35,040 nucleotides of DNA from Myxococcales bacterium (lineage in GTDB: Bacteria; Myxococcota; Myxococcia; Myxococcales; 40CM-4-68-19): NCBI GenBank assembly GCA_035498355.1, contig DATKAG010000541.1, positions 1-35,040 on the forward strand, read 5' to 3'. The notes beneath the pieces were generated by a model. The model was not told where the DNA came from and ran no database searches. It saw only the letters and a list, made by a program, of their open reading frames with translations. Each line of letters starts with the position of its first letter. The first letter of the stretch is position 1. The position numbers and the translations under genes are program-made. Shown here piece by piece: positions 491-28,626 of the stretch.

Positions 491-506
491 TGGCCCCGCG
501 ATTGCT
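491..506 (+). promoter_or_regulatory. Candidate sigma-54 (-24/-12) promoter upstream of hypF
   Basis: TGGCCCCGCGATTGCT versus consensus TGGCACG-N4-TTGCW. GG at 492-493 and GC at 504-505 have the exact spacing. The predicted start site falls about 2 nt before the GTG at 519. Confidence 0.35.
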
Positions 507-8251: not shown

Positions 8252-8297
8252 GCTCCGGCCGCGATTTTTCGGCGCGAAGACTGCAAGAGCTGCGGCC

Positions 8298-11895: not shown

Positions 11896-11989
11896 GCAAG
11901 GAGAGCGCAGCCATTGCGCCCATTTCGCGCTCCGCGGAGGACCCGCGGCTGGCCCGTCGATTGCTGATCCCGGAGGGAGGAGATTCCGC

Positions 11990-12481: not shown

Positions 12482-12490
12482 GAGCGAGCC

Positions 12491-13183
12491 ATGTGCCAGG
12501 ACTGCGGCTGCGGCGACAGCGAGCTCGTTCCCGTCGAAGTGCAGGAACGCCTCCTGGCCGCCAACGACCGGACGGCGGCGCACAACCGGGAGCACTTCGT
12601 GGAGCACGGCGTCCTGGCCCTGAACCTGATGGGCTCGCCGGGCTCGGGGAAGACGGCGCTCCTGGAGGCGACGGCGCGCTGGACGAAAGGGAGGCTGCGC
12701 CTGGGCGCGGTGAGCGGGGACCTGGAGACCGACCGCGACGCCGCCCGGCTGATCAAGGCCGGCATTCCCGCCCGCGCCATCACCACCGGCACCGCCTGCC
12801 ACCTGGACGCCTCGCTGGTGCACCACGCGCTGCACGAGTTCCCCCTCGCCGGCCTGGACGTGTTCGCCATCGAGAACGTGGGCAACCTGGTCTGCCCCGC
12901 CATCTACGATCTGGGCCAGGCCGCGAACGTCGTGGTCCTCTCCGTCACCGAGGGGGAGGACAAGCCGCTCAAGTATCCCACCATGTTCCGCGCGGCCGAC
13001 CTGGTGGTGCTCACCAAGCTCGACCTCTTGTCCCACCTCGACATCCGGGTGGAGGCCATCGAGGATGCCCTCGCCCGCGTGATGCCTTCGCCCCGCCTGA
13101 TCGCCGTCTCGGCAAAGACCGGCGCGGGGATCGGGGACTGGCTGGAGTGGATCGCGCAGCGGCGGCAGAAGAAGGTGGCTTGA
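12491..13183 (+). CDS. hypB: Hydrogenase nickel-incorporation GTPase HypB
   Basis: N-terminal MCQDCGCG high-affinity metal motif. P-loop GSPGSGKT, plus ENVGNLVCP and TKLDL GTPase blocks. Confidence 0.92.
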   Translation: MCQDCGCGDSELVPVEVQERLLAANDRTAAHNREHFVEHGVLALNLMGSPGSGKTALLEATARWTKGRLRLGAVSGDLETDRDAARLIKAGIPARAITTGTACHLDASLVHHALHEFPLAGLDVFAIENVGNLVCPAIYDLGQAANVVVLSVTEGEDKPLKYPTMFRAADLVVLTKLDLLSHLDIRVEAIEDALARVMPSPRLIAVSAKTGAGIGDWLEWIAQRRQKKVA

Positions 13184-13554: not shown

Positions 13555-13635
13555 CGCCAGATGCCTCCGCAGCCAGCGATTACAAGAACGATGCCGCGCC
13601 GGATGGCAGGGTGACACAGCCCTTTTCCCGCATGG

Positions 13636-13655
13636 TTTGCGCCTCGGGGCGCAAA
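13636..13655 (-). terminator. GC-rich hairpin TTTGCGCC-N4-GGCGCAAA between hemY and the dksA-like gene (possible attenuator, terminator or operator)
   Basis: Perfect 8-bp inverted repeat with a 4-nt loop, 10 nt downstream of the hemY stop. No U-tract follows on either strand, so intrinsic-terminator function is uncertain. Confidence 0.25.
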
Positions 13656-14921: not shown

Positions 14922-14938
14922 CGCCGACGTCCTCCTGA

Positions 14939-14951
14939 CGCAATTCTTGCG
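14939..14951. promoter_or_regulatory. Palindromic site CGCAA-TTC-TTGCG (copy 3 of the recurrent motif) in the hemY/hemN divergent region
   Basis: Read directly: cgcaattcttgcg. It starts 2 nt beyond the hemY Shine-Dalgarno sequence, and lies 18 nt from the hemY ATG and 109 nt upstream of the hemN ATG. Confidence 0.45.
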
Positions 14952-15059
14952 CGCCGTGTTCCATCGCGCACTTCCTGCGCGCGACGCGCCTCGATGGCGG
15001 GTGTAGAGGCCCGGAAGCAATGGGCATTCCACGGCATGCTTCGTGAACTGTGACCGGGC

Positions 15060-16412
15060 ATGTCCGCCTTTCCCCCCGTGACCGAAGAGCTGGTCCGCCG
15101 CTACGACGTCCCCGCCCCCCGGTATACGAGCTACCCGACCGCGCCGGAATGGTCGGAGCGGATCGGGCCGGCGGACCTGGCCAATGCGCTGCAAACCGCC
15201 GGCGCGCAAGGGCCTTCCGCGCCCCTCTCGCTCTACGTGCACATCCCCTTCTGCAAGGAGCGCTGCACCTTCTGCGGGTGCAACGTGGTCATCGCCCGCA
15301 ACCAGCACACCGCCGACCGCTACATCGCCATGCTGGCCCGCGAGCTGGACAGCGTGGTGCAGCCGCTGGACGAGCGCAGGACGCTCTCCCAGGTGCACTA
15401 CGGGGGCGGGACCCCCACCTTCCTCGACGAGAAGCAGCTCACCGCGCTCTGGCAGAGCATCACCCGGCGCTTCTCCATCGCTCCCGACGCGGAGGTGGCG
15501 GTGGAGGTGGACCCGGTGGTCACCACCCGCGGGCAGCTCGCGCTGTTGCGCTCGTTCGGGTTCAACCGCATCTCCCTGGGCGTGCAGGATCTCGACCCCA
15601 CGGTGCAGAAGGCCATCGACCGCATCCAGACCGAGGAGGAGACGCGGGCGGTGCTGGAGTACGCGCGCGGCCTGGGGTACGGCGGGATCAACGTCGACCT
15701 GATCTACGGACTGCCCTACCAGACGCAACAGAGCTGGGCGGAGACGCTGCGCAAGGTCATCGCCATGCGCCCGGACCGCGCGGCCGTCTACGGCTTCGCT
15801 TACGTCCCTGAGCAGCGCACCAACCAGAAGCGGCTGCCGGTGGCGGGAATCCCCCGGGGGGCGGCGAAGCTCGACCTCTTCCGCACCGCCTGGGAGGCCT
15901 TCACGGAGGCGGGGTACCGGCCCATCGGGATGGACCACTTCGCCCTGCCGGAGGACGAGCTGTCCAAGGCGCAGGAGCGGCGCACGCTGACACGCAACTT
16001 CCAGGGGTATACGGTGAAGGCGGCGGGGGACGTGGTGGCCATCGGAGCTTCCGCCATCAGCGACGTGAGCGGGCTGTACGCGCAGAACGCGCGCGGCCTG
16101 CCGCACTACTACGCGGCCGTGGGCGAGGGCCGGCTGGCCACCGAGCGCGGGTTCCGCTGCAGCGACGACGACCGGCGGCGCCGGGGCATCATCAACAGCA
16201 TCATGTGCAACTTCTGGGTGGACCTGGGGACGACGGCCGGGTGGGAGCGGGAGCTGGAGCGGCTTTCGGCGCTGGAGAAGGAAGGCCTCCTGACGGTGCG
16301 GGGCAGCGAGATCGAGCTGACGCCGCTGGGCCGGATCTTCGTGCGCAACGTGGCCTGCGTGTTCGACGCGTACCTGGGGCATGGCGAAAGGATCTTCTCG
16401 AGGGCGGTGTGA
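15060..16412 (+). CDS. hemN: Oxygen-independent coproporphyrinogen III oxidase (radical SAM) HemN
   Basis: PRYTSYPTA N-terminal motif, radical-SAM CKERCTFCGC, GGGTPTF, 450 aa. Confidence 0.92.
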   Translation: MSAFPPVTEELVRRYDVPAPRYTSYPTAPEWSERIGPADLANALQTAGAQGPSAPLSLYVHIPFCKERCTFCGCNVVIARNQHTADRYIAMLARELDSVVQPLDERRTLSQVHYGGGTPTFLDEKQLTALWQSITRRFSIAPDAEVAVEVDPVVTTRGQLALLRSFGFNRISLGVQDLDPTVQKAIDRIQTEEETRAVLEYARGLGYGGINVDLIYGLPYQTQQSWAETLRKVIAMRPDRAAVYGFAYVPEQRTNQKRLPVAGIPRGAAKLDLFRTAWEAFTEAGYRPIGMDHFALPEDELSKAQERRTLTRNFQGYTVKAAGDVVAIGASAISDVSGLYAQNARGLPHYYAAVGEGRLATERGFRCSDDDRRRRGIINSIMCNFWVDLGTTAGWERELERLSALEKEGLLTVRGSEIELTPLGRIFVRNVACVFDAYLGHGERIFSRAV

Positions 16413-19400
16413 TGAGCGACAAGGCCATCTACCTCTTTGGCGGCGGGGTGGCGGACGGGCGGGCGGAGCTGAAAGAGCTCCTGGGCGGAAAGGGCTCGGG
16501 CCTGGCGGAGATGGCCAGGCTGGGGGTCCCCGTGCCACCCGGCTTCACCATCACCACCGAGGTGTGCGCGGCCTTCCAGCAGGGCGGCGCCATCCCCGGG
16601 GCGGTGATCGCGGAGGTTCCCGGGGCGCTCGCACATCTGGAGAAGATCACCGGGCTGCGCTTCGGCGATCCTGCCGCGCCCTTGCTCGTCTCCGTCCGCT
16701 CGGGGGCGCGGGTGTCCATGCCCGGGATGATGGACACAGTGCTCGACCTCGGGCTCAACGACGTCACCGTCCGGGGCCTGGCCGCGCGCAGCGGCGAGCG
16801 GTTCGCCTGGGACTGCTACCGGCGGTTCGTCTGCATGTACGGCGGCGTGGTGCTGGGGCTGGGCGACGAGCCCTTCGACCGGATCTTCGAGGAAGTGAAG
16901 CGGGAGCGGCACGCGGCCACCGATTCCGATCTCGGCACCCGCGACCTGGCCGCGGTGGTGGAGAAGGCCAAGGCGTTCATCGAGGAGCGCACCGGCAAGC
17001 CCCTGCCTTTCGACCCGCGCGAGCAGCTCCTGCGGGCGGTGGAGGCGGTCTTCCGCTCCTGGGACAACCCGCGGGCGGTGGCCTACCGGGCCCTGCACCA
17101 CATCCCCGGCGGCTGGGGCACCGCGGTCACGGTGCAGGCGATGGTGTTCGGCAACCTGGGCGACGACTCGGGGACCGGGGTGGTGTTCTCCCGGGATCCG
17201 GCCAGCGGAGAGAACGTCCTCTACGGGGAGTATCTCCAGGCCGCCCAGGGCGAGGACGTGGTGGCGGGCATCCGCACCCCGCTGCGCATCGCCGAGATGG
17301 AGCGGAAGTTCCCCGAGGCGTACCGCGGGCTGGTGGAGACGTTGCGCAAGCTGGAGAGGCACTTCCGCGACCTGCAGGACGTGGAGTTCACCGTCGAGCG
17401 TGGCCGGCTCTGGGTGCTGCAGTGCCGCTCGGGCAAGCGCACCGGGACTGCCGCGGTCCGCCTGGCGGTGGAGATGGTGGACGAGGGCCTGATCGACCGG
17501 CGCACCGCGGTCTCCCGCGTCGAGCCCCCGGCCCTGGAGCAGCTGCTGCGTCCGGTCTTCGACTTTGATGCGCGCGCGAAAGCGGAGGTGCTGGCGCGCG
17601 GCTTGCCCGCAGGTCCCGGTGCCGCCTCCGGCCGCGCCGTGTTCAACGCCGCCGAGGCGGAGTGGTCGGCCGGGCGGGGCGAGCGGGTGATCCTTGTCCG
17701 CGAGCAGACCAGCCCGGAGGACATCCGCGGAATGGCGGCGGCGGAGGGGCTGCTCACGCAGTTCGGCGGCATGACCTCGCACGCGGCGCTGGTCGCCCGG
17801 CAGATGGGCAAGGTGGCGGTGGTCGGCGTGGAGACGATGAAGATCGACGCGGAGGGCGCCCTGTTCGGCGCCCGCCGCCTCAAGCCCGGCGACTGGATCT
17901 CGCTGGACGGCAGCGCCGGCGAGGTGATCCTCGGCAAGCTGCCCACCCGCGAGTCGCAGGCGCTGCGGGGCCTGCTGGCGAAGGATTCCACCTCCCCGGT
18001 CGTGCGGCTGCTCTCCTGGGCGGACGAGCTGCGCAGGCTGGGAGTGCGCGCCAACGCCGATCAGGGCGACCAGGCCGCGTTGGCGGCGTCGCTGGGCGCC
18101 GAGGGCATCGGCCTCTGCCGGACGGAGCACATGTTCTTCGGCCCGGGGAAGATCGAGCCGATGCGGGAGATGATCCTGGCCCGCAGCGAGGGGGAGCGGC
18201 GGGTGGCGCTGGAGAAGCTCCTGCCCCTGCAGCGGGCCGACTTCGCGGCGATCTTCCGGGCGATGGGCGGGCACCACGTCACCATCCGCACCCTGGACCC
18301 GCCGCTGCACGAGTTCTTGCCCCACGACCCGGCGGGGATCGCCGAGGTGGCGCAGGCCAGCGGCCGCAGCGCGGAGGAAGTGGCGGCGCGGGTGGAGGAG
18401 CTGGCCGAGTCGAACCCCATGCTGGGGCTGCGGGGTTGCCGCCTGGGGATCTCCTGGCCGGAGATCACCGAGATGCAGGCGCTGGCCATCTTCGAGGCGG
18501 CCTGCGACGTGGCCCAGGAGGGGATCCCGGTCAGGCCCCAGGTGATGATCCCGCTGGCCGGCACCCGCGCGGAGCTGGAGCACCAGGGGAAGGTGGTGCG
18601 GGAGGCGGCGGAGCGCGTCTTCGCCCGCCGGGGGCGGAGGGTGGAGTGGAAGCTCGGGGCGATGATCGAGGTGCCCCGGGCGGCGCTGCTGGCGGGGGAG
18701 ATCGCCGAGGTGTCGGAGTTCGTCTCCTTCGGCACCAACGACCTCACCCAGACGGTCTACGGACTCTCGCGCGACGACGTGGGGCCGGTGCTGGCGCGGT
18801 ATCTCGAGCTGGGCATCTACCCGCAGGACCCGTTCGTCTCCCTGGACCCGGCGGGCGTGGGACAGCTGGTGCGGCTGGCGGTGGAGCGCGGCCGGGCGGT
18901 GCGGCCTTCGCTGGAGGTGGGCATCTGCGGCGAGCACGGCGGCGACCCGGCCTCCATCGCCCTCTGCCACGAGCTGGGCCTGGATTACGTCTCCTGCTCG
19001 CCCTCGCGCCTTCCGGTCGCGCGCCTGGCGGCGGCGCGGGCGGCCATCGCTTCACAACGAGGAGCAATCACAATGAAACGGATCCTGGTGGGAGTGGACG
19101 GTTCGATGGAGTCCCTGCAGGCGGCGCTTCTCGCCGCGAACCTCGCGCACCAGACGCACCGCACCATCGAGCTGGCCCACGTGCTGCCCGACGCGGTCCC
19201 CATGCCTCCGGAAGCCTTCTCCACCGAGCTGGCGGTCTGGAGGAAGGAGATGGCGGAAGAGGGCAACAAGTTGCTGCAGGAGATCCGCAGCCGCGTGGAC
19301 CGCCCGGACACCGAGGTGCGCAGCACCCTGGTGGAGTCGGCCCGTCCCGCGGAAGCCCTGGCCGAGCTGGCCAAGGAGCCGGACATCGACCTGGTGGTGG

Positions 19401-19501
19401 TGGGCCACCGCGGCCGCAGCGTGGTCACCCGGGCGCTCCTGGGCAGCGTGGCGGACCGTTTGGTGCAGATCAGCCCCAAGCCGGTGCTGGTCGTCCGGTA
19501 G
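16412..19501 (+). CDS. ppdK: Pyruvate, phosphate dikinase continuing in frame, with no stop, into a universal stress protein domain (1029-aa ORF)
   Basis: PPDK blocks: GGKGSGLAEM, the swivelling-domain GGMTSHAALVARQMG with phospho-His, PEP-utiliser TIM barrel GLCRTEHMF, FGTNDLTQ, and the C-terminal SCSPSRLPVARLAAARAA that normally ends PPDK. The frame then reads IASQRGAIT-MKRILVGVDGS... to the TAG at 19499-19501. TGATG overlap with hemN. Confidence 0.85.
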   Translation: MSDKAIYLFGGGVADGRAELKELLGGKGSGLAEMARLGVPVPPGFTITTEVCAAFQQGGAIPGAVIAEVPGALAHLEKITGLRFGDPAAPLLVSVRSGARVSMPGMMDTVLDLGLNDVTVRGLAARSGERFAWDCYRRFVCMYGGVVLGLGDEPFDRIFEEVKRERHAATDSDLGTRDLAAVVEKAKAFIEERTGKPLPFDPREQLLRAVEAVFRSWDNPRAVAYRALHHIPGGWGTAVTVQAMVFGNLGDDSGTGVVFSRDPASGENVLYGEYLQAAQGEDVVAGIRTPLRIAEMERKFPEAYRGLVETLRKLERHFRDLQDVEFTVERGRLWVLQCRSGKRTGTAAVRLAVEMVDEGLIDRRTAVSRVEPPALEQLLRPVFDFDARAKAEVLARGLPAGPGAASGRAVFNAAEAEWSAGRGERVILVREQTSPEDIRGMAAAEGLLTQFGGMTSHAALVARQMGKVAVVGVETMKIDAEGALFGARRLKPGDWISLDGSAGEVILGKLPTRESQALRGLLAKDSTSPVVRLLSWADELRRLGVRANADQGDQAALAASLGAEGIGLCRTEHMFFGPGKIEPMREMILARSEGERRVALEKLLPLQRADFAAIFRAMGGHHVTIRTLDPPLHEFLPHDPAGIAEVAQASGRSAEEVAARVEELAESNPMLGLRGCRLGISWPEITEMQALAIFEAACDVAQEGIPVRPQVMIPLAGTRAELEHQGKVVREAAERVFARRGRRVEWKLGAMIEVPRAALLAGEIAEVSEFVSFGTNDLTQTVYGLSRDDVGPVLARYLELGIYPQDPFVSLDPAGVGQLVRLAVERGRAVRPSLEVGICGEHGGDPASIALCHELGLDYVSCSPSRLPVARLAAARAAIASQRGAITMKRILVGVDGSMESLQAALLAANLAHQTHRTIELAHVLPDAVPMPPEAFSTELAVWRKEMAEEGNKLLQEIRSRVDRPDTEVRSTLVESARPAEALAELAKEPDIDLVVVGHRGRSVVTRALLGSVADRLVQISPKPVLVVR
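19073..19501 (+). other. USP (UspA-family) domain with its own SD/ATG, in frame with ppdK; may also be translated independently
   Basis: GAGGAG (19059-19064) lies 8 nt upstream of the ATG at 19073. MKRILVGVDGS...DLVVVGHRGRSVVTRALLGSVADRLVQISPKPVLVVR is a complete USP fold and a paralog of the CDS at 22333..22758. Confidence 0.6.
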
Positions 19502-19504
19502 GCC

Positions 19505-19527
19505 CACCCGGCCAATTCGGCCGGGTG
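19505..19527 (+). terminator. Hairpin CACCCGGCC-AATTC-GGCCGGGTG immediately after the ppdK/USP stop
   Basis: Perfect 9-bp stem starting 4 nt after the TAG, lying between convergent genes. The T-rich stretch TGATTGTTGG follows only after the duplicated arm. Confidence 0.4.
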
Positions 19528-19547
19528 AACCAGTCGGCCGGGTGAAC
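19518..19547 (+). repeat. Tandem direct repeat CGGCCGGGTGAAC x2 (4-nt spacer); each copy can pair with the upstream arm CACCCGGCC
   Basis: Read directly: cggccgggtgaac cagt cggccgggtgaac. Confidence 0.7.
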
Positions 19548-19627
19548 TGATTGTTGGCTGCTGAACAGCGGCATGCTCAAAAGGGGACCTCCCTGCGCAG
19601 CCGCTTCGCTGCCACAGATCAAGGTGT

Positions 19628-20080
19628 TCAGGCGTGCGGCCCCTCGCGGCTCACTCGCACCACCGCCGCGATTGCAACCAGCGCCACCGGCGTCAGGATG
19701 GCCGTCGTCACCCCGAAAGCCCATGCCCATCCCAGGCTCACGGCGGAAATACCCAGAAGCCCTCCCGCGAGCTCGCGGCGCGAGAGGCGTCCGCCGAGGA
19801 TACCGAAGAAGCACGCGGGCCCCAGTGCCGCGGCCACCAGCGCGCCGAGCGGCGGCGCCTCCGGCACCGGCCCCGGCACGAGGATCCTCCGGAGCGGCAC
19901 CCCCAAATGCGCCATGCCGGCGACATGGGCCGCCGGCGCCTCGCCCTCGCCGACCAGGATCATCCAGCCGTCCGCGGCTCCCAGCAGGTATCCGAAGGTG
20001 CCGGAGGCGGCCGCAAAGGCCGCCAGAAACAGGACCTTCCTGCCCAGGGCAAGTAATCCATTCGCCGCCTGCTTCACCAT
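19628..20080 (-). CDS. Hypothetical small integral membrane protein (about 4 predicted TM helices)
   Basis: Hydrophobic Gly/Ala/Leu-rich product (VLFLAAFAAASGTFGYLLG, LGALVAAALGPACFFGILGG, AVSLGWAWAFGVTTAILTPVALVAIAAVV). Lies downstream of, and co-oriented with, the sigma-54 activator. ATG at 20080 chosen; a GTG at 20119 is an alternative start. Confidence 0.5.
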   Translation of the reverse strand: MVKQAANGLLALGRKVLFLAAFAAASGTFGYLLGAADGWMILVGEGEAPAAHVAGMAHLGVPLRRILVPGPVPEAPPLGALVAAALGPACFFGILGGRLSRRELAGGLLGISAVSLGWAWAFGVTTAILTPVALVAIAAVVRVSREGPHA

Positions 20081-20157
20081 GCCCCCAAAAGAACACGGCG
20101 TGCGCGTCTTGCGACGCACACGCCGGTCATCTCCCGAGATGTCCGCCCCGGGTGCCG

Positions 20158-21564
20158 CTAGGCTGCCGGCGGCGCCTGCTGCGCGACTTCCGCCTGGTGC
20201 TGCCGGTCCAGCTGCGCGTACTCCTTCATCCGGTACTGGATCTTCCGGGCAGAAATCCCCAGCATGTCCGCCGCCCGCGAAGTCGATCCGCCCACCAGCT
20301 CCAGGGTGCGCAGGATGGCTTCCCGCTCGATCTCGTACAGCGTCGCCCCGGGGATCAGCGAACCGGCCTCGCGCCGGTCCGGCCGGGCGCCCCGCAGCGA
20401 AGGCGGCAGGTCGTCCGCGGTGATCTCCCGCCCCTGCGCCAGCACCACGGCCCGCTCGATGGCGTTCTCCAGCTCGCGCACGTTCCCCGGCCAGTCGTGG
20501 GCCAGGAGCGCGTTCAGCGTCCCGGGGCCCAGCCCTCGCACGTCCTTGCCGTAGAGGCGCGCGTACTTCTCGATGAAGTGCGAGGCGAGCGCGGGCAGGT
20601 CTCCCTTGCGCCGGCGCAGCGGGGGCAAAGTGACGGCGACCACGTTCAGCCGGTAGTACAGGTCCTCGCGGAACTTGCCCGCCTTCACCTCGGCGGCCAG
20701 GTCCCGGTTGGTGGCGGCCACCAGGCGGACGTCGACCTTCAGGGTCTGCGTCCCGCCTACCCTCTCGAACTCCTTGGTCTGCAGGACCCGCAGGAGCTTG
20801 ATCTGCGTGGCCGCAGAGATCTCCCCGATCTCGTCCAGGAAGAGCGTCCCGCCGTCGGCCAGCTCGAAGCGGCCTTCCCTGCGCCCGATGGCGCCGGTGA
20901 AGGAGCCCCGCTCATGCCCGAAGAGCTCGCTCTCCAGCAGCGTCTCCGAGAGGGCCGCGCAGGACACCTTGACGAAGGGCTTGTCGCGCCGCGGGCTCTC
21001 CTCGTGCAGCGCGTGGGCGATGATCTCCTTGCCCGTCCCCGACTCGCCGAGGATGAGCACGGTGGCCTTGGTGGGGGCCGCCTGGCGCACGACGTCGTAG
21101 ACCGCGCGCAGCTCGGGGGCATCGCCCACCAGGCCGTCCAGGCGGTACTGCTCGCGCACCCGGTCGCGCAGCGAGAGGGTCTCCCGCTGCAAGCGCCGCT
21201 TCTCCAGCGCCTTCTCCAGGAACACCAGCACCGCCTGCAGGTCGAGCGGCTTGGTGAGGTAGTTCTCGGCGCCGGCCTTCATCGCCTCCACCGCCGCTTG
21301 CACCGAGGCGAAGGCGGTCATCATCACGAAAGCGGCGTCGCTGCCCGCCTCCCGCGCCTTGCGGATGAGGGTGATGCCGTCCATCTTCGGCATCCGCATG
21401 TCGGTGAGCACTACGGCGGGGTCCAGCTCGGCGATCTTCGCCAGCGCCTCCTCGCCGTCTGCGGCCTCGGCGATTTCGTAACCCTCCTCGCCCAGAAGGG
21501 TTCGGAGCGCGGTTCGCGCGTTCTGCTCGTCATCGACGACGAGGATCCGTTCCTTCATTGCCAT
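20158..21564 (-). CDS. NtrC-family sigma-54-dependent response regulator (REC-AAA+-Fis HTH), paralog 1
   Basis: REC (ILVVDDE...VLTDMRMPKMDG...KP), AAA+ Walker [15 protein letters not shown]-type loop [15 protein letters not shown], Walker B LFLDEIGE, and C-terminal [22 protein letters not shown]. Confidence 0.92.
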   Translation of the reverse strand: MAMKERILVVDDEQNARTALRTLLGEEGYEIAEAADGEEALAKIAELDPAVVLTDMRMPKMDGITLIRKAREAGSDAAFVMMTAFASVQAAVEAMKAGAENYLTKPLDLQAVLVFLEKALEKRRLQRETLSLRDRVREQYRLDGLVGDAPELRAVYDVVRQAAPTKATVLILGESGTGKEIIAHALHEESPRRDKPFVKVSCAALSETLLESELFGHERGSFTGAIGRREGRFELADGGTLFLDEIGEISAATQIKLLRVLQTKEFERVGGTQTLKVDVRLVAATNRDLAAEVKAGKFREDLYYRLNVVAVTLPPLRRRKGDLPALASHFIEKYARLYGKDVRGLGPGTLNALLAHDWPGNVRELENAIERAVVLAQGREITADDLPPSLRGARPDRREAGSLIPGATLYEIEREAILRTLELVGGSTSRAADMLGISARKIQYRMKEYAQLDRQHQAEVAQQAPPAA

Positions 21565-21577
21565 GGCCCCATCCTTC

Positions 21578-21592
21578 GCAAGTGTCGTGCCG
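21578..21592 (-). promoter_or_regulatory. Near-consensus sigma-54 promoter element abutting the activator paralog-1 start
   Basis: The minus strand reads CGGCACGACACTTGC(G), against consensus TGGCACG-N4-TTGCW. The C of GC is at 21578, so the predicted start site is about 21566, 2 nt before the ATG at 21564. The element overlaps the AAGGA SD. Confidence 0.45.
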
Positions 21593-21645
21593 CAGGTGGG
21601 GTCCCCGGCGGCTGGGGGAAGTGCCGCCAGGGGTGCCCCAAGCGC

Positions 21646-21975
21646 TCATTTCCCGAATGAGCGCACCAGCTTCACGAGGTTGTCGATCTCTTCGCCGGAC
21701 AGCTTGTCCTTGTACCCTTCCATCTCACCCTTGTCGTTCTTCGCCCCGTTGCTGATGGCCGACTTGAGTTGATCGTCCGTCTTCGACTTCTGGAAGCCGG
21801 CGTCGGCGTAGTTGGGAATGCCCAGCTTCTTCCCCTGGTCCGTCTCGGCCTTGCCGTCGGCGCCATGACAGGAGGCGCACTTCGCCTTCCAGTTGCGCTC
21901 CGTCTTCTTGTCCACCTGCGCTCGCGCAGCTAGCGGGAGGGCGAGGGAGAGAATGGCGAGAATCATCTTCTTCAC
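21646..21975 (-). CDS. Small secreted monoheme c-type cytochrome
   Basis: Signal peptide MKKMILAILSLALPLAARA, single heme motif CASCHG, a later Met (GEMEGY) as a possible sixth ligand, and a Lys-rich mature part. GTG start with SD AAGGAG 8 nt upstream. Confidence 0.85.
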   Translation of the reverse strand: MKKMILAILSLALPLAARAQVDKKTERNWKAKCASCHGADGKAETDQGKKLGIPNYADAGFQKSKTDDQLKSAISNGAKNDKGEMEGYKDKLSGEEIDNLVKLVRSFGK

Positions 21976-21995
21976 GGGCTTTTCTCCTTGAGGAG

Positions 21996-22106
21996 TCAGT
22001 GGAACAGCGGTGCGCAGGCCAGACCGATGAGGATGGCGCCCATCCAGACGAGCAGGAACGCTGTTGCCCGGGAACGCGGATTGGGCCTCGCCGTCGATGG
22101 ACGCAT
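21996..22106 (-). CDS. Unannotated 36-aa single-TM sORF directly upstream of the cytochrome c gene
   Basis: The minus strand reads AAGGAGG, then 7 nt, then ATG. Product is MRPSTARPNPRSRATAFLLVWMGAILIGLACAPLFH followed by a stop, which lies 20 nt before the cytochrome c GTG. Below the ORF-track length cutoff. GC3 is high in the hydrophobic half and lower in the N-terminal third. Confidence 0.45.
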   Translation of the reverse strand: MRPSTARPNPRSRATAFLLVWMGAILIGLACAPLFH

Positions 22107-22138
22107 ACGAAAGCCTCCTTTACGACGTCTGCGTGTTG

Positions 22139-22154
22139 AGCAAGACGCATGCCC
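22139..22154 (-). promoter_or_regulatory. Candidate sigma-54 promoter for the sORF-cytochrome c-activator-membrane protein operon
   Basis: The minus strand reads GGGCATGCGTCTTGCT, with GG-N10-GC exact, GGCATG against GGCACG, and a TTGCT -12 box. The predicted start site near 22128 gives a 22-nt leader carrying the sORF SD. Confidence 0.5.
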
Positions 22155-22225
22155 CTCTGCCGTCGAGCGTCAAGACGAGGTTTGCACGCACGAAATGCAC
22201 AGCGGAATGCCGCAAATCCCCCCTC

Positions 22226-22267
22226 TGCGCAGGGATTGCGCCTCCTCGACTGCGCAGGGCTTTCGCA
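22226..22267. promoter_or_regulatory. Two direct repeats TGCGCAGGG(A/C)TT(-/T)(G/C)GC(-/A), 25 nt apart, 75-100 nt upstream of the 22153 sigma-54 element; candidate enhancer (UAS)
   Basis: tgcgcagggattgcgc (22226-22241) and tgcgcagggctttcgca (22251-22267). The first contains CGCAG-GGA-TTGCG, a 9/10 match to the recurrent palindrome; the second matches 8/10. Confidence 0.35.
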
Positions 22268-22332
22268 TCGGGCCAGGAGTTGCTCGAGGCCCTGCCGTCG
22301 GAAGGACGGCGCGCTGGAACGAGCTGGCAGAG

Positions 22333-22758
22333 CTACCGGACCACCGTCACCGGCTTGCTGCAGATCTGCACCAGCCGATCAGCCACGCTGCCGGTGAGGA
22401 AGCGCGAGATCGCTCCCCGCCCGCGGTGCCCGACCACCACCAGGTCCACGTCACCGATCTTCGCCTGCTCCGCCAGCGCCTCGGCGGGAGGTCCGCTCAG
22501 CACCGCCGTCTCTACCCGCACGCCCGGCCGGGCCGCGCCCGCGGCCGCTTCCTTGAGGGCGCCCGCGCAGCGCACCTTCTCTTGCGCCTCCCACTGGGCC
22601 ACCTTGAGCTGCAGTTCGGGAGCGCCGAACGCTTCCTGGAAGTAGACCGACGTGGCGATCGTCAGCTGGCAGTTGAGAGCCTGCGCAAGGTCGGCGGCGA
22701 AGCCCACCGCCACCCGCGACTCGTTGGAGCCGTCATATCCGGCCAGAATCCGCTTCAT
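22333..22758 (-). CDS. Universal stress protein (UspA family), paralog of the ppdK-fused domain
   Basis: MKRILAGYDGSNES...DLVVVGHRGRGAISRFLTGSVADRLVQICSKPVTVVR. SD GGAGGTG lies upstream. Confidence 0.85.
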   Translation of the reverse strand: MKRILAGYDGSNESRVAVGFAADLAQALNCQLTIATSVYFQEAFGAPELQLKVAQWEAQEKVRCAGALKEAAAGAARPGVRVETAVLSGPPAEALAEQAKIGDVDLVVVGHRGRGAISRFLTGSVADRLVQICSKPVTVVR

Positions 22759-22924
22759 GGTACACCTCCGGTGCAGAAGTGTTCATAAAGCATGCCGCCT
22801 CCATCCTCGCGACTTGTCGAAGCAGCAATCGCAGGAACTGCAACCACGGGGGGCGCATCGCGCACCCGCGCCTTTTCGGCCACCCGAATCTCGCCCGACG
22901 CATTTGCAGCGGCCTTCCCGTCGA

Positions 22925-22945
22925 GGGGCGCAACTCTTGCGCCCC
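22925..22945. promoter_or_regulatory. Perfect 9-bp inverted repeat GGGGCGCAA-CTC-TTGCGCCCC (copy 4, the longest, of the recurrent motif) in the USP/hemerythrin divergent region
   Basis: Read directly. Because of the flanking G/C runs it also satisfies GG-N10-GC on both strands: GGCGCAACTCTTGC on plus and GGCGCAAGAGTTGC on minus. Confidence 0.55.
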
Positions 22946-22974
22946 CTCGTGAAGGCGCAGGGAAAGGCCCTCCG

Positions 22975-22990
22975 CGGCTCGCCCCTTGCA
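22975..22990 (+). promoter_or_regulatory. Candidate sigma-54 promoter for the hemerythrin-like gene plus activator paralog 2
   Basis: CGGCTCGCCCCTTGCA with exact GG-N10-GC spacing and a TTGCA -12 box. The predicted start site near 23001 lies just ahead of SD AGAGGAGG (23002-23009) and the ATG at 23015. Confidence 0.45.
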
Positions 22991-23014
22991 GTTTCTACGA
23001 CAGAGGAGGCGCAC

Positions 23015-23464
23015 ATGACCCACGAGGAGCGTCGGCAAACCCTGCACTCCCAGCACCAGCAGCTCCGCACGGTCATCGCCGGCGTCCGGGAAGCCGCCCT
23101 GGACATCGTCGGCCGGGAAGGCGGCGACTCCACCGGCCTGCGCATGCGCATCTCCGTGCTCCGCGACGACCTCGAGCGCCACCTTGCCACCGAGGAGGCG
23201 CTCCTCGGTCCGGTGCTGGAGCGGATCGACGCCTGGGGGCCCGTCCGCCTCGACCTCCTGCGCGCCGAGCATGCGCACCAGCGGGCCGTCCTCAGCCTGC
23301 TGCGCTCCGACCGCGCCGCCGCCTTGCCCTCGCTGGGCCTGGCGCGCAGGGTGCTGGCGCTGCTGGACGACATCTGCGCGGACATGGACGCCGAGGACCG
23401 CGATCTGCTCGACCCCAGGGTCCTGCGCGACGACCTCATCCAGCTGGACGCCAGCGACGCATGA
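23015..23464 (+). CDS. Hemerythrin-like (HHE cation-binding) domain protein
   Basis: 149 aa, predicted helical. His/Glu ligand-like spacing: LHSQHQQL, LERHLATEEALL (HxxxE), LRAEHAHQRAVL, and an acidic last helix DDICADMDAEDRD. Assignment is by motif pattern only. Confidence 0.55.
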   Translation: MTHEERRQTLHSQHQQLRTVIAGVREAALDIVGREGGDSTGLRMRISVLRDDLERHLATEEALLGPVLERIDAWGPVRLDLLRAEHAHQRAVLSLLRSDRAAALPSLGLARRVLALLDDICADMDAEDRDLLDPRVLRDDLIQLDASDA

Positions 23465-23518
23465 GGAGCCAGCGGCCACCCCGATCCAGGGCGCCTCGCG
23501 CCAAGGTAGACTGATTCG

Positions 23519-24910
23519 ATGCCCAAGGAACGCATCCTCGTCGTCGACGACGAGCAGAACGCCCGCTCTGCGCTCCGCCTCATCCTCAGCGAGGAAGGCT
23601 ACGAGATCGCCGAGGCCGAGGACGGAGAGGCCGCGCTGGCCCGGCTGGAGGAGTTCGCCCCCGCCGTGGTGCTGGCGGACGTGCGCATGCCCAGGATGGA
23701 CGGGCTGACCCTGCTGCGCACCGCCAAGGAGCGGGGGAGCGACGCCATCTTCATCATGATGACCGCCTTCGGCACGGTGGAGGCGGCGGTGGAGGCGATG
23801 CGCGCCGGCGCGGAGAACTTCCTCACCAAGCCGCTGGACGTGAACTCGGTGCTGGTCTTCCTGCAGAAGGCGTTGGAGAAGCGCAAGCTGGTGCGCGAGT
23901 CGCAGGCGCTGCGGGAGCGGGTGCGGGAGCGCTACCGGATCAGCGGCATGGTGGGCGAGGCCCCCGAGCTGCAGGCCGTCTACCAGGTGGTGAAGCAGGC
24001 CGCGCCCACCCGGGCCACCGTGCTCATCCTGGGCGAGTCCGGCACCGGCAAGGAGCTGATCGCCCAGGCGGTGCACGAGGAGAGCGACCGGGCGCAGAAG
24101 CCGTTCGTCAAGGTGAGCTGCGCGGCCCTCTCCGAGACCCTGCTGGAGAGCGAGCTGTTCGGGCACGAGAAGGGCTCCTTCACCGGGGCGATTGCGCGCA
24201 AGGAGGGCCGCTTCGAGCTGGCCGACGGCGGGACGCTCTTCCTCGACGAGATCGGCGAGATCACCCCTTCCACCCAGGTGAAGCTCTTGCGGGCCCTGCA
24301 GACCCGGGAGTTCGAGCGGGTGGGCGGGACGCAGACCATCAAGGTGGACGTCCGCCTGGTGGCCGCCACCAACCGCGACCTGGTGGCGGAGGTGAAGGCA
24401 GGGAAGTTCCGCGAGGACCTCTTCTACCGGCTGAACGTGGTGGCGGTGACGCTGCCGCCCCTGCGGCGGCGCAAGGGCGACATCCCCGCCCTGGTGAGCC
24501 ACTTCGTGGAGAAGTACGCGGCCAACTACGGCAAGGAGGTGAAGGGCCTCGCTCCCGGCACCCTCAACGCCCTGCTCGCCTACGACTGGCCGGGCAACGT
24601 CCGCGAGTTGGAGAACGCGGTGGAGCGCGCGGTGGTGCTCTGCAAGGGCCGGGAGCTGACTGCGGACGATCTCCCGCCCACCATGCAGGGGCCTCGCCCC
24701 GCCGGCCGCGACGCCAACAGCCTCATCCCCGGGGCCACCATGGCGGAGATCGAGCGGGAGGCCATCCTCCGCACCATGGAGATGGTGGGCGGCTCCACCG
24801 CCAAGGCGGCGGACATGCTGGGCATCTCCATCCGCAAGATCCAGTACCGGCTGAAGGAGTATTCGGGCGAGGTGCCCCCGCACACGGGCGATCACGAGCC
24901 CGAGGCATAG
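23519..24910 (+). CDS. NtrC-family sigma-54-dependent response regulator, paralog 2
   Basis: Collinear with the 20158..21564 product, roughly three-quarters identical by eye. Shares GESGTGKE and [15 protein letters not shown], and the HTH is almost identical ([19 protein letters not shown]). Confidence 0.92.
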
Positions 24911-24917
24911 CCGCCCT

Positions 24918-26003
24918 TCAAGCTCTCGGCAGGCGGACCCAGAAGCGGGCCCCGCCCAGCGGCGACTTCTCGTACCCGATCGAGCCGCCGTGCTGGATGA
25001 CGATGGCGTGCACGATGGGCAGGCCCAGCCCGGAGCCGGACGCCTTGGTGGTGAAGAAGGGCTCGAAGATCCGCTCGGCGTTCTCCGGGGGGATACCCGG
25101 GCCGCTGTCGTCCACCGCCAGCACCACGTCCCGGTCCACCGCCCGGGCGGTGACCCGCACCCGGCCGCCCCTGGGGGCGGCCTCCAGGGCGTTGAGGGCC
25201 AGGTTCATCATCACCTGCCGCAGCCGCTCCGCGTCTCCCAGCACGGAGGGGAGGTCCGGCGCGATCTGCTGCTCGAGCGCGATCCCCCGGCGCTCCGCGT
25301 CGCCGCCCAGAAGCCCCAGCACGGCTTCCAGCACCCCCTGGACCTCCACCGGCCGCGCGTCCAGCTCCCGCGGCCGGGCGAACTGGAGGAAGTCCTCCAA
25401 CAGGTGCTCCAGCCGGCGGATCTCGTCGCGCACCAGCCCCAGCGGCTCCAGCAGTGGGCCCTGCAGGTCCTCGGTCAGCTTGCAAATGCGCCGCTCCAGC
25501 ACCGCGAGCTGCAGCCCGGCCGCGTTCAAGGGATTGCGGATTTCGTGGGAGATGCCCGCCGTCAACGTCCCCACCGCCGCCAGCTTCTCCGCCACTTGCG
25601 CCCGCCGGGCCAGCTCGCGCTTCTCCGCGTGCAGCCTCACCTGGCGCAGCGCCTGCTCGATGGTGAGGAGCAAGTCGGCGGTGCTGCAGGGCTTCACCAG
25701 GTAGGCGAAGGCGCCCGCCCGCACCGCTCCGATGGCCGTTTCCAGGGTGGCGAACCCGGTGAGGAGCACGATCTCGCCCCCGGGGGAGAGATCCTTGAGC
25801 TGCACCGCCAGCGCCGTGCCCGAGGCGTCGGGCAGGCGCAGGTCGACCAGGGCCACGTCGAACCCCGACCCGGCCTTCTCCAGCGCCTGGGCCGCCGAGG
25901 GCGCGACGGCCACCCGGTACTCCTCCTCCTCGAGGATCTGGCGCAGGTTGTCGAGCAGGGCGGTGTTGTCGTCCACCACCAGGATGCGGGCATCCTTGCT
26001 CAA
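24918..26003 (-). CDS. Receiver-fused histidine kinase (REC-HisKA-HATPase_c)
   Basis: N-terminal REC (ILVVDDN...[13 protein letters not shown]...VKP), H-box [12 protein letters not shown] box [10 protein letters not shown] boxes DDSGPGI and GSGLGL. The apparent TTG start (26003) overlaps the upstream gene's TGA. Confidence 0.85.
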
Positions 26004-26704
26004 AGGGCGCTCCTCTGCTGGTGGATGCGTTCGATGGTCCGCAGGAGCGCCCCGGTATCGAAGGGCTTGGCGAAGACCGTCGCCCCGCTCTCGCTCATCC
26101 CCTCGGCGAAAGCGGTGATGACGATCTGCGGCAGGTCGGGGAAGCGCCGGGCGAGCAGGTGCATCGCCTGGCCGTCGGGCCCTCCCGGGACCCGCCGGTC
26201 CACCAGGGCGAGGAAGGGGCGCACGTCGCCGAACCGCTCCGCGTCCGCGATGGAGCGCGCGGTCACCGCCGAGAAGCCGTGGTCGCGCAGGGTCTCGCAG
26301 AGGTTGTCGGCCAGGCCGGCGTCGTCCTCCACCAGCGCTACCAGCGCGTCGCGGCGGGCCGCCTGGAGCAGCTCCAGCAACCGGGGAACGGGGACGGGCT
26401 TGGGAAGGACCGCCAGGATTCCTTCGTTGCGGGCGGCCGCCAAGTCGTCATCGCCGGTGTAGGCCGTCACCACGATGGTGGGAAGCTGGGAATCGCCGCG
26501 GCGGATCTCGTGCACCAGCCGGGCGCCGCTCATCACCGGCATGCGCATGTCGGTGACCAGGGCGTCGAAGCGGCGCTCCCGGGCCGCACGCAGCGCCGCC
26601 TCGGCGCCGGGGGCGGTGACCACCTCGTGGCCGGCATCGCGCAGGATCTCCGCCAGGTTCTCCGCGAAGGCCGCGTTATCGTCCACCAGGAGGAACGTCT
26701 TCAT
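26000..26704 (-). CDS. Output-less response regulator with two tandem receiver domains
   Basis: 234 aa. REC1 is FLLVDDN...ALVTD(52)MRMPVMSG...PKP. REC2 is ALVEDD...LALVD(169)RRVPGGPDG...AKP. ATGA overlap with the upstream kinase. Confidence 0.85.
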
Positions 26705-27846
26705 GCGGCGGCCCTCGGCAGCCGGACCACGAAGCGCGCGCCCAGGCTGCCGGGAGCATAACCGATGGTGCCACCGTGCCGCTCGACGATGCGCTTGACC
26801 AGGGCCAGGCCCAGCCCGATGCCCTTGGCCTTGGTGGTGACCAGGGGCTCGAAGAGCCGGGCGCGGATGGAGGGATCGATGCCCTTGCCGCTGTCCTCGA
26901 TTTCCACCTCCGCCTGGCCCTGCTCCGTCCCCGCCCGCACCCAGACCTTGCCCCGCTCGCCGACGGCGTGGACGGCGTTGTCGATCAAGTTGACGAACAC
27001 CTGGCGGAGCTGGCCAGCATCGCCCTCCACCTCCGGCAGGCGAGCCAGCCCCTGAAGCTCCAGCTCCACCTGCGCCGGCCGGCCCACCGCCGCCGCCGCC
27101 GCCTCGATCACCTGCGCCAGGGCCAGCCGCTCCCGGGCCAGCGGCTTCTCCCGGATCATGTCCAAGAGATCGGTGATGATGCTGTTGGCGATCCCCAGCT
27201 GCTCGCCGATGCGCTCCACGTGCTTTTCCGCCCGCTCGTCGCCCTTGGTGCGGTTGCGGAGGATGAAGAGGGAAGTCTCCATCACTCCCAGGGGATTGCG
27301 CAGCTCGTGCCCGATGGAGCCCACCAGCTGCCCGAAGGTGGAGAGGCGCTCCACCCGCGACTGCTGGGCCAGCAGGTCCTCCCGGTAGGTGTGGAGCATG
27401 ATGGCCAGCTCGATGTCCAGCGCCTTGCCCAGGGCGGCGCGGGCCGCGGCCAGCTCCTCGGGGCGGTCGCGGTAGTGGACGTCGATCACCGAGTTCAGCT
27501 GCCGCCGGAACACGTTCATGGCCGCGAACATGTAGTGCTGGGGCAGGGCGATGCGCACGTGGACCCGGCCGATCCGGCAGCGGAGCTCGAAGTATTCCTG
27601 GTCCCAGGGCCCTAGCAGCAGGCGGTCCATCCAGGCGATGAGCGTGCCCTTGAGCCTGCCCACCGCGCTCTCGCCCCCCACCAGGGCCTTGCGCGCCTCG
27701 TCGTGGAGGAGGATCCGGTCGTAGAAGACGTCTGCCACCCGCTCGAAATGAGGCTGCGCCACGGAGTGCAGGGCGCGGAGGGCGGATTCGTCCCCGGAGT
27801 TCCAGTCTACGTACCTCTGCAGCTCTTGCAGCAAGGTCTCCGCCAT
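26701..27846 (-). CDS. Globin-coupled (protoglobin sensor domain) histidine kinase
   Basis: The N-terminal 150 aa carry sensor-globin signatures: distal Tyr in DVFYDRIL and proximal His in [20 protein letters not shown]. These are followed by H-box [12 protein letters not shown] and the HATPase N/G boxes ([21 protein letters not shown]). Start is the ATG at 27846; the rest of ORF 26701..28161 is antisense to the CBS gene. Confidence 0.85.
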
Positions 27847-27908: not shown

Positions 27909-27924
27909 TGCAAGCGTCAAGCCT
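27909..27924 (-). promoter_or_regulatory. Candidate sigma-54 promoter for the globin-kinase operon (also contains a TTGACG -35-like hexamer)
   Basis: The minus strand reads AGGCTTGACGCTTGCA with exact GG-N10-GC spacing and a TTGCA -12 box. The leader would be about 50 nt. Confidence 0.3.
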
Positions 27925-27993
27925 CGCTTTTTGCGGAGTTTTTGCGCAGAACTTGCGCGCCGGGACCCCCGGCGCGCCGGCCGCGGCGCAAGT

Positions 27994-28022
27994 GGTTCGC
28001 CCGGGAGAACCGGTTCGCCCGG
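27994..28022 (+). repeat. Tandem direct repeat GGTTCGCCCGGG x2 (18-nt period) with an embedded palindrome GAACCGGTTC; third copy at 27885-27895
   Basis: Read directly: tGGTTCGCCCGGGagaaccGGTTCGCCCGGGtg. A third GGTTCGCCCGG lies at 27885. Confidence 0.7.
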
Positions 28023-28078
28023 GTGAAAGGCCCCCCGGGGGGTGGCCCGGCGCTTGCTGCCAAAAAGGGCAAGCCGCG

Positions 28079-28471
28079 ATGCGCATCGTCGAGCAGTACA
28101 TGAGTCGCGAGCCCGCGACGATCGGCAAGGACGAGCCGCTCGTGGCCGCCCACCGGCTCATGCAGACCCATCGGATCCGCCACTTGCCGGTCCTCCACCA
28201 GGGCCGGATCGTGGGCGTGGTCAGCGAGCGCGACCTCTACCTGCTAGAGACGGTGAAGAACGTCGACCCGCGGCGCGAGCCGGTGGAGGAGGCGATGACC
28301 GCCTTCCCCTTCACTGTTCCGCCGGACGCTCCCCTGGCCGACGTCGCCCGGCAGATGTGGAAGCACCGCTACGGCTCCGCCCTGGTGGTGAAGGACGGCA
28401 GCCTGGTTGGCATCTTCACCCGCGCCGACGCGCTGCGGGCGTTGACCGAGATCGATCCCCCGCGCGCCTGA
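28079..28471 (+). CDS. Stand-alone CBS-pair domain protein
   Basis: 130 aa with two CBS repeats ([44 protein letters not shown] and [47 protein letters not shown]). Confidence 0.8.
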
Positions 28472-28610: not shown

Positions 28611-28626
28611 TGGCGGGCGACTTGCT
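28611..28626 (+). promoter_or_regulatory. Candidate sigma-54 promoter for the PilZ-like gene
   Basis: TGGCGGGCGACTTGCT with exact GG-N10-GC spacing and a TTGCT -12 box. The predicted start site near 28637 is followed by SD GGAGGG (28641-28646) and the ATG at 28654. Confidence 0.4.

Follow-up and report, generated by a model that had tools for sequence, protein, structure and literature searches.

The window analysed here comprises 35,040 nucleotides (nt) of DNA from an uncultured myxobacterium (Myxococcales bacterium; GenBank contig DATKAG010000541.1, positions 1-35,040, assembly GCA_035498355.1). Its G+C content ranges from 66 to 75%, a 97-kb soil-metagenome contig (ENA ERZ27256499) matches it, and its closest genome relatives are Anaeromyxobacteraceae and Myxococcales metagenome-assembled genomes. 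The subject of this analysis is the region at 20158-24910, in which two paralogous NtrC-type activators of sigma-54 promoters lie in divergent orientation, together with the adjoining kinase operon; these genes are considered as parts of an NmpRSTU-type phosphorelay, a system described in Myxococcus xanthus.

On the minus strand, the region contains the gene for activator 1 (nmpR1; 20158-21564, 468 residues), a gene for a monoheme c-type cytochrome with a signal peptide and a CASCH motif (21646-21975; Pfam Cytochrome_CBB3 and Cytochrom_C), and a small putative open reading frame (sORF) of 36 amino acids with one hydrophobic segment (21996-22106). The sORF has no family match and a third-codon-position G+C content (GC3) of 0.76, and gene callers predict it on two related contigs, L003 and L004. 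A Pfam-assigned universal stress protein (USP) gene lies at 22333-22758 on the same strand. On the plus strand, the gene for a hemerythrin HHE-domain protein of 149 residues (23015-23464; Pfam Hemerythrin above cut-off) precedes that for activator 2 (nmpR2; 23519-24910, 463 residues). The hemerythrin-like protein has H11, H56xxxE60, and H86, and D123xxxE127 replaces the last HxxxE of the canonical YtfE-type di-iron motif, H-HxxxE-H-HxxxE (PMC12753109). Convergent to nmpR2 on the minus strand are genes for an NmpS-like hybrid kinase (24918-26003; Pfam REC, HisKA, and HATPase), an NmpT-like protein of 234 residues with two receiver domains (26000-26704; two Pfam Response_reg stretches), and an NmpU-like protoglobin histidine kinase (26701-27846; Pfam), and a CBS-domain protein gene is located at 28079-28471 on the plus strand (gene call and family search).

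The elements named in the initial annotation of this DNA are thus present at or near the places it gave them, as judged by open reading frames and Pfam. One grouping is doubtful, namely the assignment of a four-transmembrane (4-TM) protein gene (19628-20080) to the transcription unit of activator 1. Between the two, after nmpR1 on the minus strand, a strong terminator-like hairpin (20125-20096) is followed by a U-run, UGUUCUUUUG, and the 4-TM gene is therefore probably outside the nmpR1 unit.

NmpRSTU has been described in M. xanthus (MXAN_4240 and MXAN_4244-4246; PMC6211767, PMC11841059). According to the published model, the protoglobin kinase NmpU, a homologue of Anaeromyxobacter AfGcHK, is predicted to be active in the presence of O2. 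It phosphorylates NmpT, which serves as a sink, and the receiver of NmpS, a hybrid kinase. The two kinases have reciprocal activities, and the NtrC-like regulator NmpR receives phosphate from NmpS only (PMC6211767, PMC11841059). The NmpR site was defined as GCGCA-N5-TGCGC by electrophoretic mobility shift assay (EMSA) and lacZ reporters (McAllister et al. 2025; PMC11841059). It was also reported that a sigma-54 site is required, that NmpR activates its own operon, in which a CBS gene comes first, and binds the nmpU promoter, that the NmpR regulon includes genes for CBS and USP proteins, hemN with a hemerythrin-like gene, a P-type ATPase gene with cbb3 oxidase genes, and pilR, and that H96 of NmpU is needed for haem binding, as seen with an H96A variant (PMC11841059).

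All four components occur in the window with the same domain architecture. The NmpU-like protein combines Protoglobin (Pfam, 7e-33), HisKA, and HATPase_c domains and has a histidine at residue 96; the NmpT-like protein consists of two Response_reg stretches without an output domain; the NmpS-like protein has Response_reg (residues 7-115), HisKA (145-212), and HATPase_c (256-360) domains; and both NmpR paralogues have a receiver (REC), a sigma-54 AAA+ domain, a Fis-type helix-turn-helix (HTH), and the acceptor Asp. The nmpU-nmpT-nmpS operon and the adjacent CBS gene are shared with M. xanthus, and the gene order with an adjoining nmpR agrees with the layout published for Anaeromyxobacter (PMC11841059) and with that of five related loci. 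Residue numbers coincide with those of the M. xanthus proteins (D54 and V87 in paralogue 2, H96 in NmpU). The initial annotation was right to propose an O2-responsive circuit, whereas its statement that no such system had been described does not stand, given the experimental work on NmpRSTU in M. xanthus (PMC6211767, PMC11841059), and the haem-based kinase operon, which it listed as a neighbour, is instead the input of the circuit.

The two activators share 79% identity and 92% similarity over 447 amino acids by BLASTP and 76.9% identity globally, so that the earlier estimate of about three-quarters identity was accurate and the expression "near-identical" was too strong. Identity is 73% in the receiver, 81% in the AAA+ domain, and 80% in the HTH region. 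As had been proposed, both are sigma-54 enhancer-binding response regulators (Pfam Response_reg, Sigma54_activat, AAA_lid_14, and HTH_8) with the same recognition-helix core, RKIQYR. Both also retain the phospho-acceptor Asp (D55 in paralogue 1, D54 in paralogue 2), the GSFTGA loop that contacts sigma-54, and Walker A, and V88 and V87, respectively, correspond to the position of the M. xanthus V87E gain-of-function change. The best NCBIfam matches of the two activators all fall below the equivalog cut-offs, namely AtoC (501 and 505 bits vs 714), ZraR (450 and 454 vs 760), and NtrC (433 and 435 vs 559), so that this search yielded no specific family name.

The palindrome GCGCA-N5-TGCGC is found upstream of both operon promoters. 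It emerged de novo from a search for enhancer sites, before comparison with the published NmpR site, with which it agrees exactly (PMC11841059). Two boxes at 22227-22266, GCGCAGGGATTGCGC (exact, from 22227) and GCGCAGGGCTTTCGC (one mismatch, from 22252), lie 10 nt apart, with centres 81.5 and 106.5 nt upstream of the -24 GG of the promoter for the sORF, cytochrome c, and nmpR1 genes (GGGCATGCGTCTTGCT, 22154-22139, minus strand, score 13.5). The hemerythrin-like gene and nmpR2 have a plus-strand promoter (CGGCTCGCCCCTTGCA, 22975-22990, score 11.2), and a third box, GCGCAACTCTTGCGC (exact, 22928-22942), has its centre 41.5 nt upstream of the -24 GG of this promoter. These promoters are the sigma-54-like sites that the initial annotation had placed at 22153 and 22976. 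Each paralogue lies behind a box and a sigma-54-type promoter, and the shared sites, cross-regulation, and positive feedback suggested earlier would be the natural reading of this arrangement.

Such motifs might arise in GC-rich DNA by chance, with other promoter types in actual use, and two observations favour this explanation: the bare pattern TGGCAC-N5-TTGC, with two mismatches allowed, is not enriched in the window (40 matches vs 35 expected), and GGGCATGCGTCTTGCT and CGGCTCGCCCCTTGCA each deviate from it at two positions. The remaining statistics oppose it. When sites were scored with a simple matrix at a threshold of at least 11, eleven sigma-54-like sites were obtained in the window, nine of which fall within the intergenic 6.4%, an enrichment beyond chance; five of the six exact boxes are also intergenic. 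With up to one mismatch, the box occurs 29 times against 7.5 expected, a number reached in none of the shuffles, and 13 pairs of a box and a sigma-54 site 20-130 nt apart were counted where 1.6 were expected, a count attained in none of 2000 random placements. At the hypF, hycI-hypB, hemerythrin-like, and dksA/traR-type genes of the window, the -24 GG follows the box centre at a distance of about 40 nt (38.5-41.5), and the same spacing recurs in related loci at nmpU of L007, nmpR of L085, the hemerythrin-like and dksA/traR-type genes of L165, and an operon of L169 that encodes a 189-residue protein. This spacing is kept across species, but the spacer sequence is not. Further distances of about 50, 60, 70, 80, 93, and 105 nt fit whole helical turns roughly, in a small sample. 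In addition, no sigma-70-type promoter was found in a scan of 19400-25100, and the motif equals an experimentally defined site (PMC11841059). The probability that the sites are chance matches is therefore practically negligible.

A different reader of the palindrome was also considered. FNR/CRP-type regulators were rejected, since the half-sites are reversed (GCGCAA-N3-TTGCGC vs TTGAT-N4-ATCAA) and binding by NmpR has been demonstrated by EMSA.

With regard to the other nmp promoters, the divergent nmpU/CBS control region (27909-28058) contains the sigma-54-like sites AGGCTTGACGCTTGCA (27924-27909, minus strand) and TGGCCCGGCGCTTGCT (28043-28058, plus strand) and boxes at 27933-47, 27944-58 (exact), and 27986-28000. 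Predicted NmpR boxes thus precede sigma-54-type sites at the nmpR, nmpU, and CBS promoters, and autoregulation of nmpR and of nmpUTS is predicted for the window as in M. xanthus. The equivalent region of L007, a locus that resembles the M. xanthus nmp locus and was used as its proxy, is arranged in an equivalent way, and the spacings of its paired boxes, 14 nt ahead of the CBS gene and 24 nt ahead of nmpU, are the values published for mxan_4236 and nmpU (PMC11841059). In contrast to the S1/S2 pair 14-15 nt apart that is typical of M. xanthus, the window often has a single box about 40 nt from the -24 GG. As a separate observation, L007 (BNCN01000004.1) is labelled Comamonas sp. KCTC 72670, a betaproteobacterium, and yet has an M. 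xanthus-like nmp locus with the published box spacings; the assembly is probably mislabelled or contaminated.

Box and promoter pairs also extend to genes of hydrogenase maturation, which adjoin a Hyb-type [NiFe] hydrogenase cluster. Good promoters are found at hypF (box ACGCAAAGTTTGCGC at 446-460 and TGGCCCCGCGATTGCT at 491-506, plus strand, with a GTG start at 519) and at hycI-hypB (exact box GCGCAGCCATTGCGC and promoter TGGCCCGTCGATTGCT within 11905-11965, plus strand); in both cases, the box centre is 39.5 nt upstream of the GG. Weaker or atypical versions occur at hypC, hemN, a dksA/traR-type zinc-finger gene, and perhaps the USP gene; at hypC and hemN, the distance between box and site is also greater. 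At hypC, an exact box within the 3' end of a protease gene (GCGCAAGGGTTGCGC, 8184-98) lies 80.5 nt upstream of a weak sigma-54-like site (CGGCGCGAAGACTGCA, 8270-85, plus strand). The divergent hemY/hemN region (14938-15047) has two boxes, ACGCAATTCTTGCGC and GCGCACTTCCTGCGC, 13 nt apart and upstream of hemN, whose assignment exceeds the TIGR00538 cut-off, together with TGGAATGCCCATTGCT (15031-15016, minus strand) and CGGCATGCTTCGTGAA (15032-47, plus strand), and all four elements are kept in L165. TGGAATGCCCATTGCT is the best-scoring sigma-54 site of the window; it points at hemY, for protoporphyrinogen oxidase, and corresponds to TGGAATGGGCCTTGCT in L165. In the control region of the dksA/traR-type gene (13581-13642, minus strand), the centre of the box GCGCAAACCATGCGG is 40.5 nt upstream of the GG in CGGCATCGTTCTTGTA, and the same 40.5-nt spacing is found in L165 with an unrelated spacer sequence. 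Before the USP gene, CGGCATGCTTTATGAA (22797-22782, minus strand) is perfect at -24 but deviates at -12. A canonical sigma-54 promoter was sought before nmpR2, hemN, the USP gene, and the hydrogenase small-subunit gene, and none scored well.

Two features of these promoters were noted in addition. The element CGGCA[CT]-N5-[TGA]TG[AT]A, with a perfect -24 and A or T in place of the canonical -12 C, recurs in the window at 15032-15047 (plus strand, hemN), 22797-22782 (minus strand, USP), and 13596-13581 (minus strand, dksA/traR-type gene) and in relatives at L165 12105-12090 and 13513-13528 and at about 7843-7858 of the Anaeromyxobacter paludicola locus L168; these elements may be atypical sigma-54 promoters of the NmpR regulon. 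In four cases, the -12 GC stands 13-14 nt before the start codon, and the predicted +1 is only 2-3 nt ahead of the GTG or ATG, so that the transcripts would be effectively leaderless mRNAs from sigma-54 promoters: hypF (491-521), hypC (8270-8300), nmpR1 (21592-21562, minus strand), and nmpR of L085 (3413-3444). The site concerned at nmpR1, CGGCACGACACTTGCG (21592-21577, minus strand), lies between the cytochrome gene and activator 1, with its predicted +1 2 nt before the ATG. In L085, where nmpR is single-copy, the gene is preceded by a similar site, CGGCAGACCTTTTGCT, and the centre of an NmpR box is 39.5 nt upstream of the GG of that site.

Because box and promoter pairs are spread across it, the window looks like a hypoxia/anoxia island, in which [NiFe]-hydrogenase maturation and O2-independent haem synthesis would be tied to the Nmp response. 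The target kinds overlap with those of M. xanthus (CBS, USP, hemN, a hemerythrin-like protein, and a c-type cytochrome), whereas boxes with sigma-54 promoters at hydrogenase-maturation genes are outside the published regulon. Neither PMC6211767 nor PMC11841059 mentions hydrogenase, duplication, or paralogues, and no further bacterial NmpR literature was found. The reach of the regulon to hydrogenase-maturation genes is thus an apparent new detail, predicted from the promoter motifs.

The window further differs from M. xanthus in having two divergent NmpR paralogues rather than one and in that nmpR follows small redox genes, while M. xanthus nmpR lies inside a CBS-led eight-gene operon. A protein search splits the relatives into an activator 1-like clade (84-98% identity) and an activator 2-like clade (84-93%), both represented in many metagenome contigs, and about 95 further single-copy relatives that are equidistant from both paralogues (76-82% identity); this split rests on the protein search, not on the contig scans. 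Pattern scans of genome and metagenome contigs gave at least four close loci, with cultured Anaeromyxobacter not among the matches listed, and offer no basis for judging how rare the duplication is.

A second species (GCA_035655715.1 and JGI 3300001686; loci L165 and L169) has both paralogues in the same divergent orientation, and its gene order follows that of the window: nmpR1, then the hemerythrin-like gene and nmpR2, nmpSTU, and genes for CBS, PilZ, and isoamylase proteins. Between the paralogues, however, it has ccsA, resB, a dehydrogenase gene, an AP endonuclease 2 family gene, and POR genes in place of the cytochrome c, sORF, and USP genes. What is conserved is therefore the pair of paralogues with its orientation, together with the hemerythrin-like-nmpR2 operon, and not the mirror-image cargo emphasized by the initial annotation. 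At the hemerythrin-like promoter of this species, GCGCAATTCCTGCGC is 39.5 nt from CGGCGCGCGCCTTGCA, the same layout as in the window. A side observation on the second species is that boxes paired with sigma-54 promoters are directed towards a 2-oxoacid:ferredoxin oxidoreductase operon (TGGCATGCGCCGTGCT) and towards ccsA/resB, which serve cytochrome c biogenesis (TGGCCCCGGCCTTGCT), at L165 1854-1935 and 8780-8916, equivalent to L169 1269-1527 and 8351-8495; the regulon may have gained members that differ from species to species.

In four close relatives (L005, L006, L007, and L085) and in A. paludicola (L168), a single activator is convergent to the kinase operon. Each of the four single activators is equally similar to both window paralogues; that of L007, for example, is 73% identical to either. 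Since single-copy relatives hold the activator at this position, nmpR2 occupies, as judged by synteny, the ancestral position, convergent to nmpS. A more distant relative, L088, has the colinear order globin-coupled histidine kinase, REC protein, REC-histidine kinase, and enhancer-binding protein.

Neither copy is a decaying pseudogene, which is ruled out by the intact motifs and by dN/dS values of 0.135 (nmpR1) and 0.132 (nmpR2) against the L165 orthologues. The same data bear on the idea that the duplication is neutral or acts by dosage, with redundant copies, an accidental outward layout, and no circuit-level consequence. The copies do look biochemically equivalent, and the cargo between them differs between the window and the second species. 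However, they have diverged to 77% identity while each remains 87-89% identical to its own orthologue in the second species under a dN/dS of about 0.13, and they form distinct clades in many metagenome contigs, whereas redundant copies are usually lost over such divergence. A neutral duplication is accordingly considered highly improbable.

Taken together, we regard it as likely that the output end of an oxygen-responsive phosphorelay of the NmpRSTU type is encoded here in an uncultured Anaeromyxobacteraceae-like myxobacterium, that the output activator NmpR has undergone an inverted duplication in this lineage, and that both copies share one input and one site. Briefly, by homology with M. 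xanthus, NmpU with O2-bound haem would autophosphorylate and pass phosphate to the NmpT sink and the NmpS receiver, which would keep the NmpS kinase off. When O2 falls, NmpS would phosphorylate NmpR, and phospho-NmpR would oligomerise on GCGCA-N5-TGCGC boxes and open sigma-54 promoters. Both NmpR copies would be fed by NmpS, bind the same boxes, and activate themselves and each other, and mixed oligomers of NmpR1 and NmpR2 may occur. Rather than providing two separate inputs, the two copies would thereby strengthen the positive feedback that single-copy NmpR is already known to exert on itself.

The initial annotation had instead proposed a bistable or two-input switch. In its stronger form, the paralogues would be sub- or neofunctionalised into a true two-input circuit with partly different regulons, one copy being under NmpS and the other under, for example, a third kinase of the window (32079-34076, minus strand; RsbRD_N, GAF, PAS, HisKA, and HATPase domains) or the co-transcribed hemerythrin-like protein as an O2/NO/iron-sensing partner. 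Both copies are indeed kept under purifying selection in two species, the hemerythrin-like gene stays with nmpR2 while other cargo changes, and the clades are separated by 33 fixed discriminating residues, nine of them in the HTH region; among these, the position immediately ahead of RKIQYR has A in clade 1 and I in clade 2, compared with V in 98% of single-copy relatives. Yet only two of the 33 lie in the receiver domain, the substitutions are mostly conservative, RKIQYR is invariant, and the same type of box precedes both operons; in M. xanthus, a hemerythrin-like gene is an ordinary NmpR target (PMC11841059); and no link was found between the RsbRD_N-GAF-PAS kinase and the Nmp genes, nor any evidence of separate inputs for the two paralogues. 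The near-absence of paralogue-specific change in the receivers and recognition helices thus favours one shared input and one shared site, and a two-input circuit appears unlikely. Subfunctionalisation retains a low probability, since nmpR2 has kept its hemerythrin-like partner and fixed differences lie close to the recognition helix.

A more elaborate version of the shared-input circuit can also be drawn, in which the inverted duplication would create interlocked double-positive feedback, possibly with mixed hexamers and a hemerythrin-like O2/NO/iron check on NmpR2, and thus a hysteretic commitment switch for hydrogenase maturation and O2-independent haem synthesis in facultative anaerobic myxobacteria. 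This is a speculative scenario, to which we assign little likelihood.

Several points weigh against assigning the region to a duplicated, self-activating NmpR. Orthology to M. xanthus Nmp is predicted from architecture, synteny, residue numbering, and the binding site, and phosphotransfer, O2 dependence, rpoN dependence, and DNA binding would all be carried over from that organism by analogy. Myxobacteria carry many enhancer-binding proteins, and another of them could share GCGCA-N5-TGCGC. In the window itself, the proximal nmpR1 site CGGCACGACACTTGCG has no box within 130 nt, nmpR2 is without a recognisable promoter of its own, the hemN, USP, and dksA/traR-type sites lack the canonical -12 GC, and both hemN/hemY boxes lie downstream of the canonical hemY-directed sigma-54 site, in its would-be leader. 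Among the relatives, the nmp locus of A. paludicola has only weak boxes. Finally, the sister placement of the two paralogues is weakly supported in a neighbour-joining tree, of which the topology alone was used, with caution, as the bootstrap values seem unreliable after re-rooting.

Other known systems help to place the circuit. One is the O2-sensing kinase AfGcHK of Anaeromyxobacter sp. Fw109-5 with its response regulator, a pair cited in PMC8697598 and PMC6211767. The two are presumably Anae109_2438 and Anae109_2439. As in the window, this globin-coupled kinase is followed by a two-receiver protein. Likewise, in Anaeromyxobacter, nmpR lies upstream of nmpS in the opposite orientation, a convergent layout already described (PMC11841059) and also seen in A. 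paludicola. Unlike the window, cultured members of the genus have one nmpR at the nmp locus. HrpR and HrpS of Pseudomonas syringae are paralogous sigma-54 activators that are encoded by tandem genes, lack receiver domains, and form a hetero-oligomer in which they are mutually dependent. They resemble the window pair in being two paralogous enhancer-binding proteins of one locus that could co-assemble on one enhancer, but the receiver domains of both window copies are complete, and there is no sign that one copy depends on the other. HoxA and HupR are NtrC-family regulators of [NiFe]-hydrogenase genes that receive their input from an H2-sensing regulatory hydrogenase and the HoxJ/HupT kinase, and the reported HupR site is TTG-N5-CAA. 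They share with NmpR the position of an NtrC-family response regulator upstream of hydrogenase and hyp genes; on the other hand, the input in the window is a globin O2 sensor, the HupR site differs from the NmpR box, and no regulatory hydrogenase genes were identified among the annotated genes of the window. A HoxA/HupR-type regulator, which had been considered for the hyp genes, was rejected because the conserved neighbour is the globin kinase relay and not a regulatory hydrogenase.

Some further features of the window may be mentioned. A pyruvate phosphate dikinase with a fused C-terminal universal-stress-protein domain is encoded at 16412-19501 and called as a single 1029-residue protein. 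Downstream of the CBS gene, the PilZ-domain gene is preceded by a sigma-54-like promoter of its own, TGGCGGGCGACTTGCT (28611-28626), with a counterpart in the second species, TGGCGGGGCGATTGCT (L169 17465-17480); no obvious NmpR box was seen nearby. A high-scoring sigma-54-like site, TGGCACATGGCTCGCT (12483-12498, minus strand), lies antisense in the 9-nt gap between hycI and hypB with no box nearby and is probably a chance match.

The circuit itself is already known and is not a new kind of system, and the kept NmpR duplicate is a new detail of it. For a relative of the Anaeromyxobacter-type anaerobes, whose Nmp regulon is stated to be unknown (PMC11841059), the window provides a testable in silico prediction of the regulon. 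The predicted targets suggest that the O2 relay may have been rewired from better use of scarce O2 in an obligate aerobe to switching on H2 metabolism and anaerobic haem synthesis. The retained duplicate also offers a natural example in which to study the coexistence of paralogous enhancer-binding proteins with a common kinase and a common DNA site.

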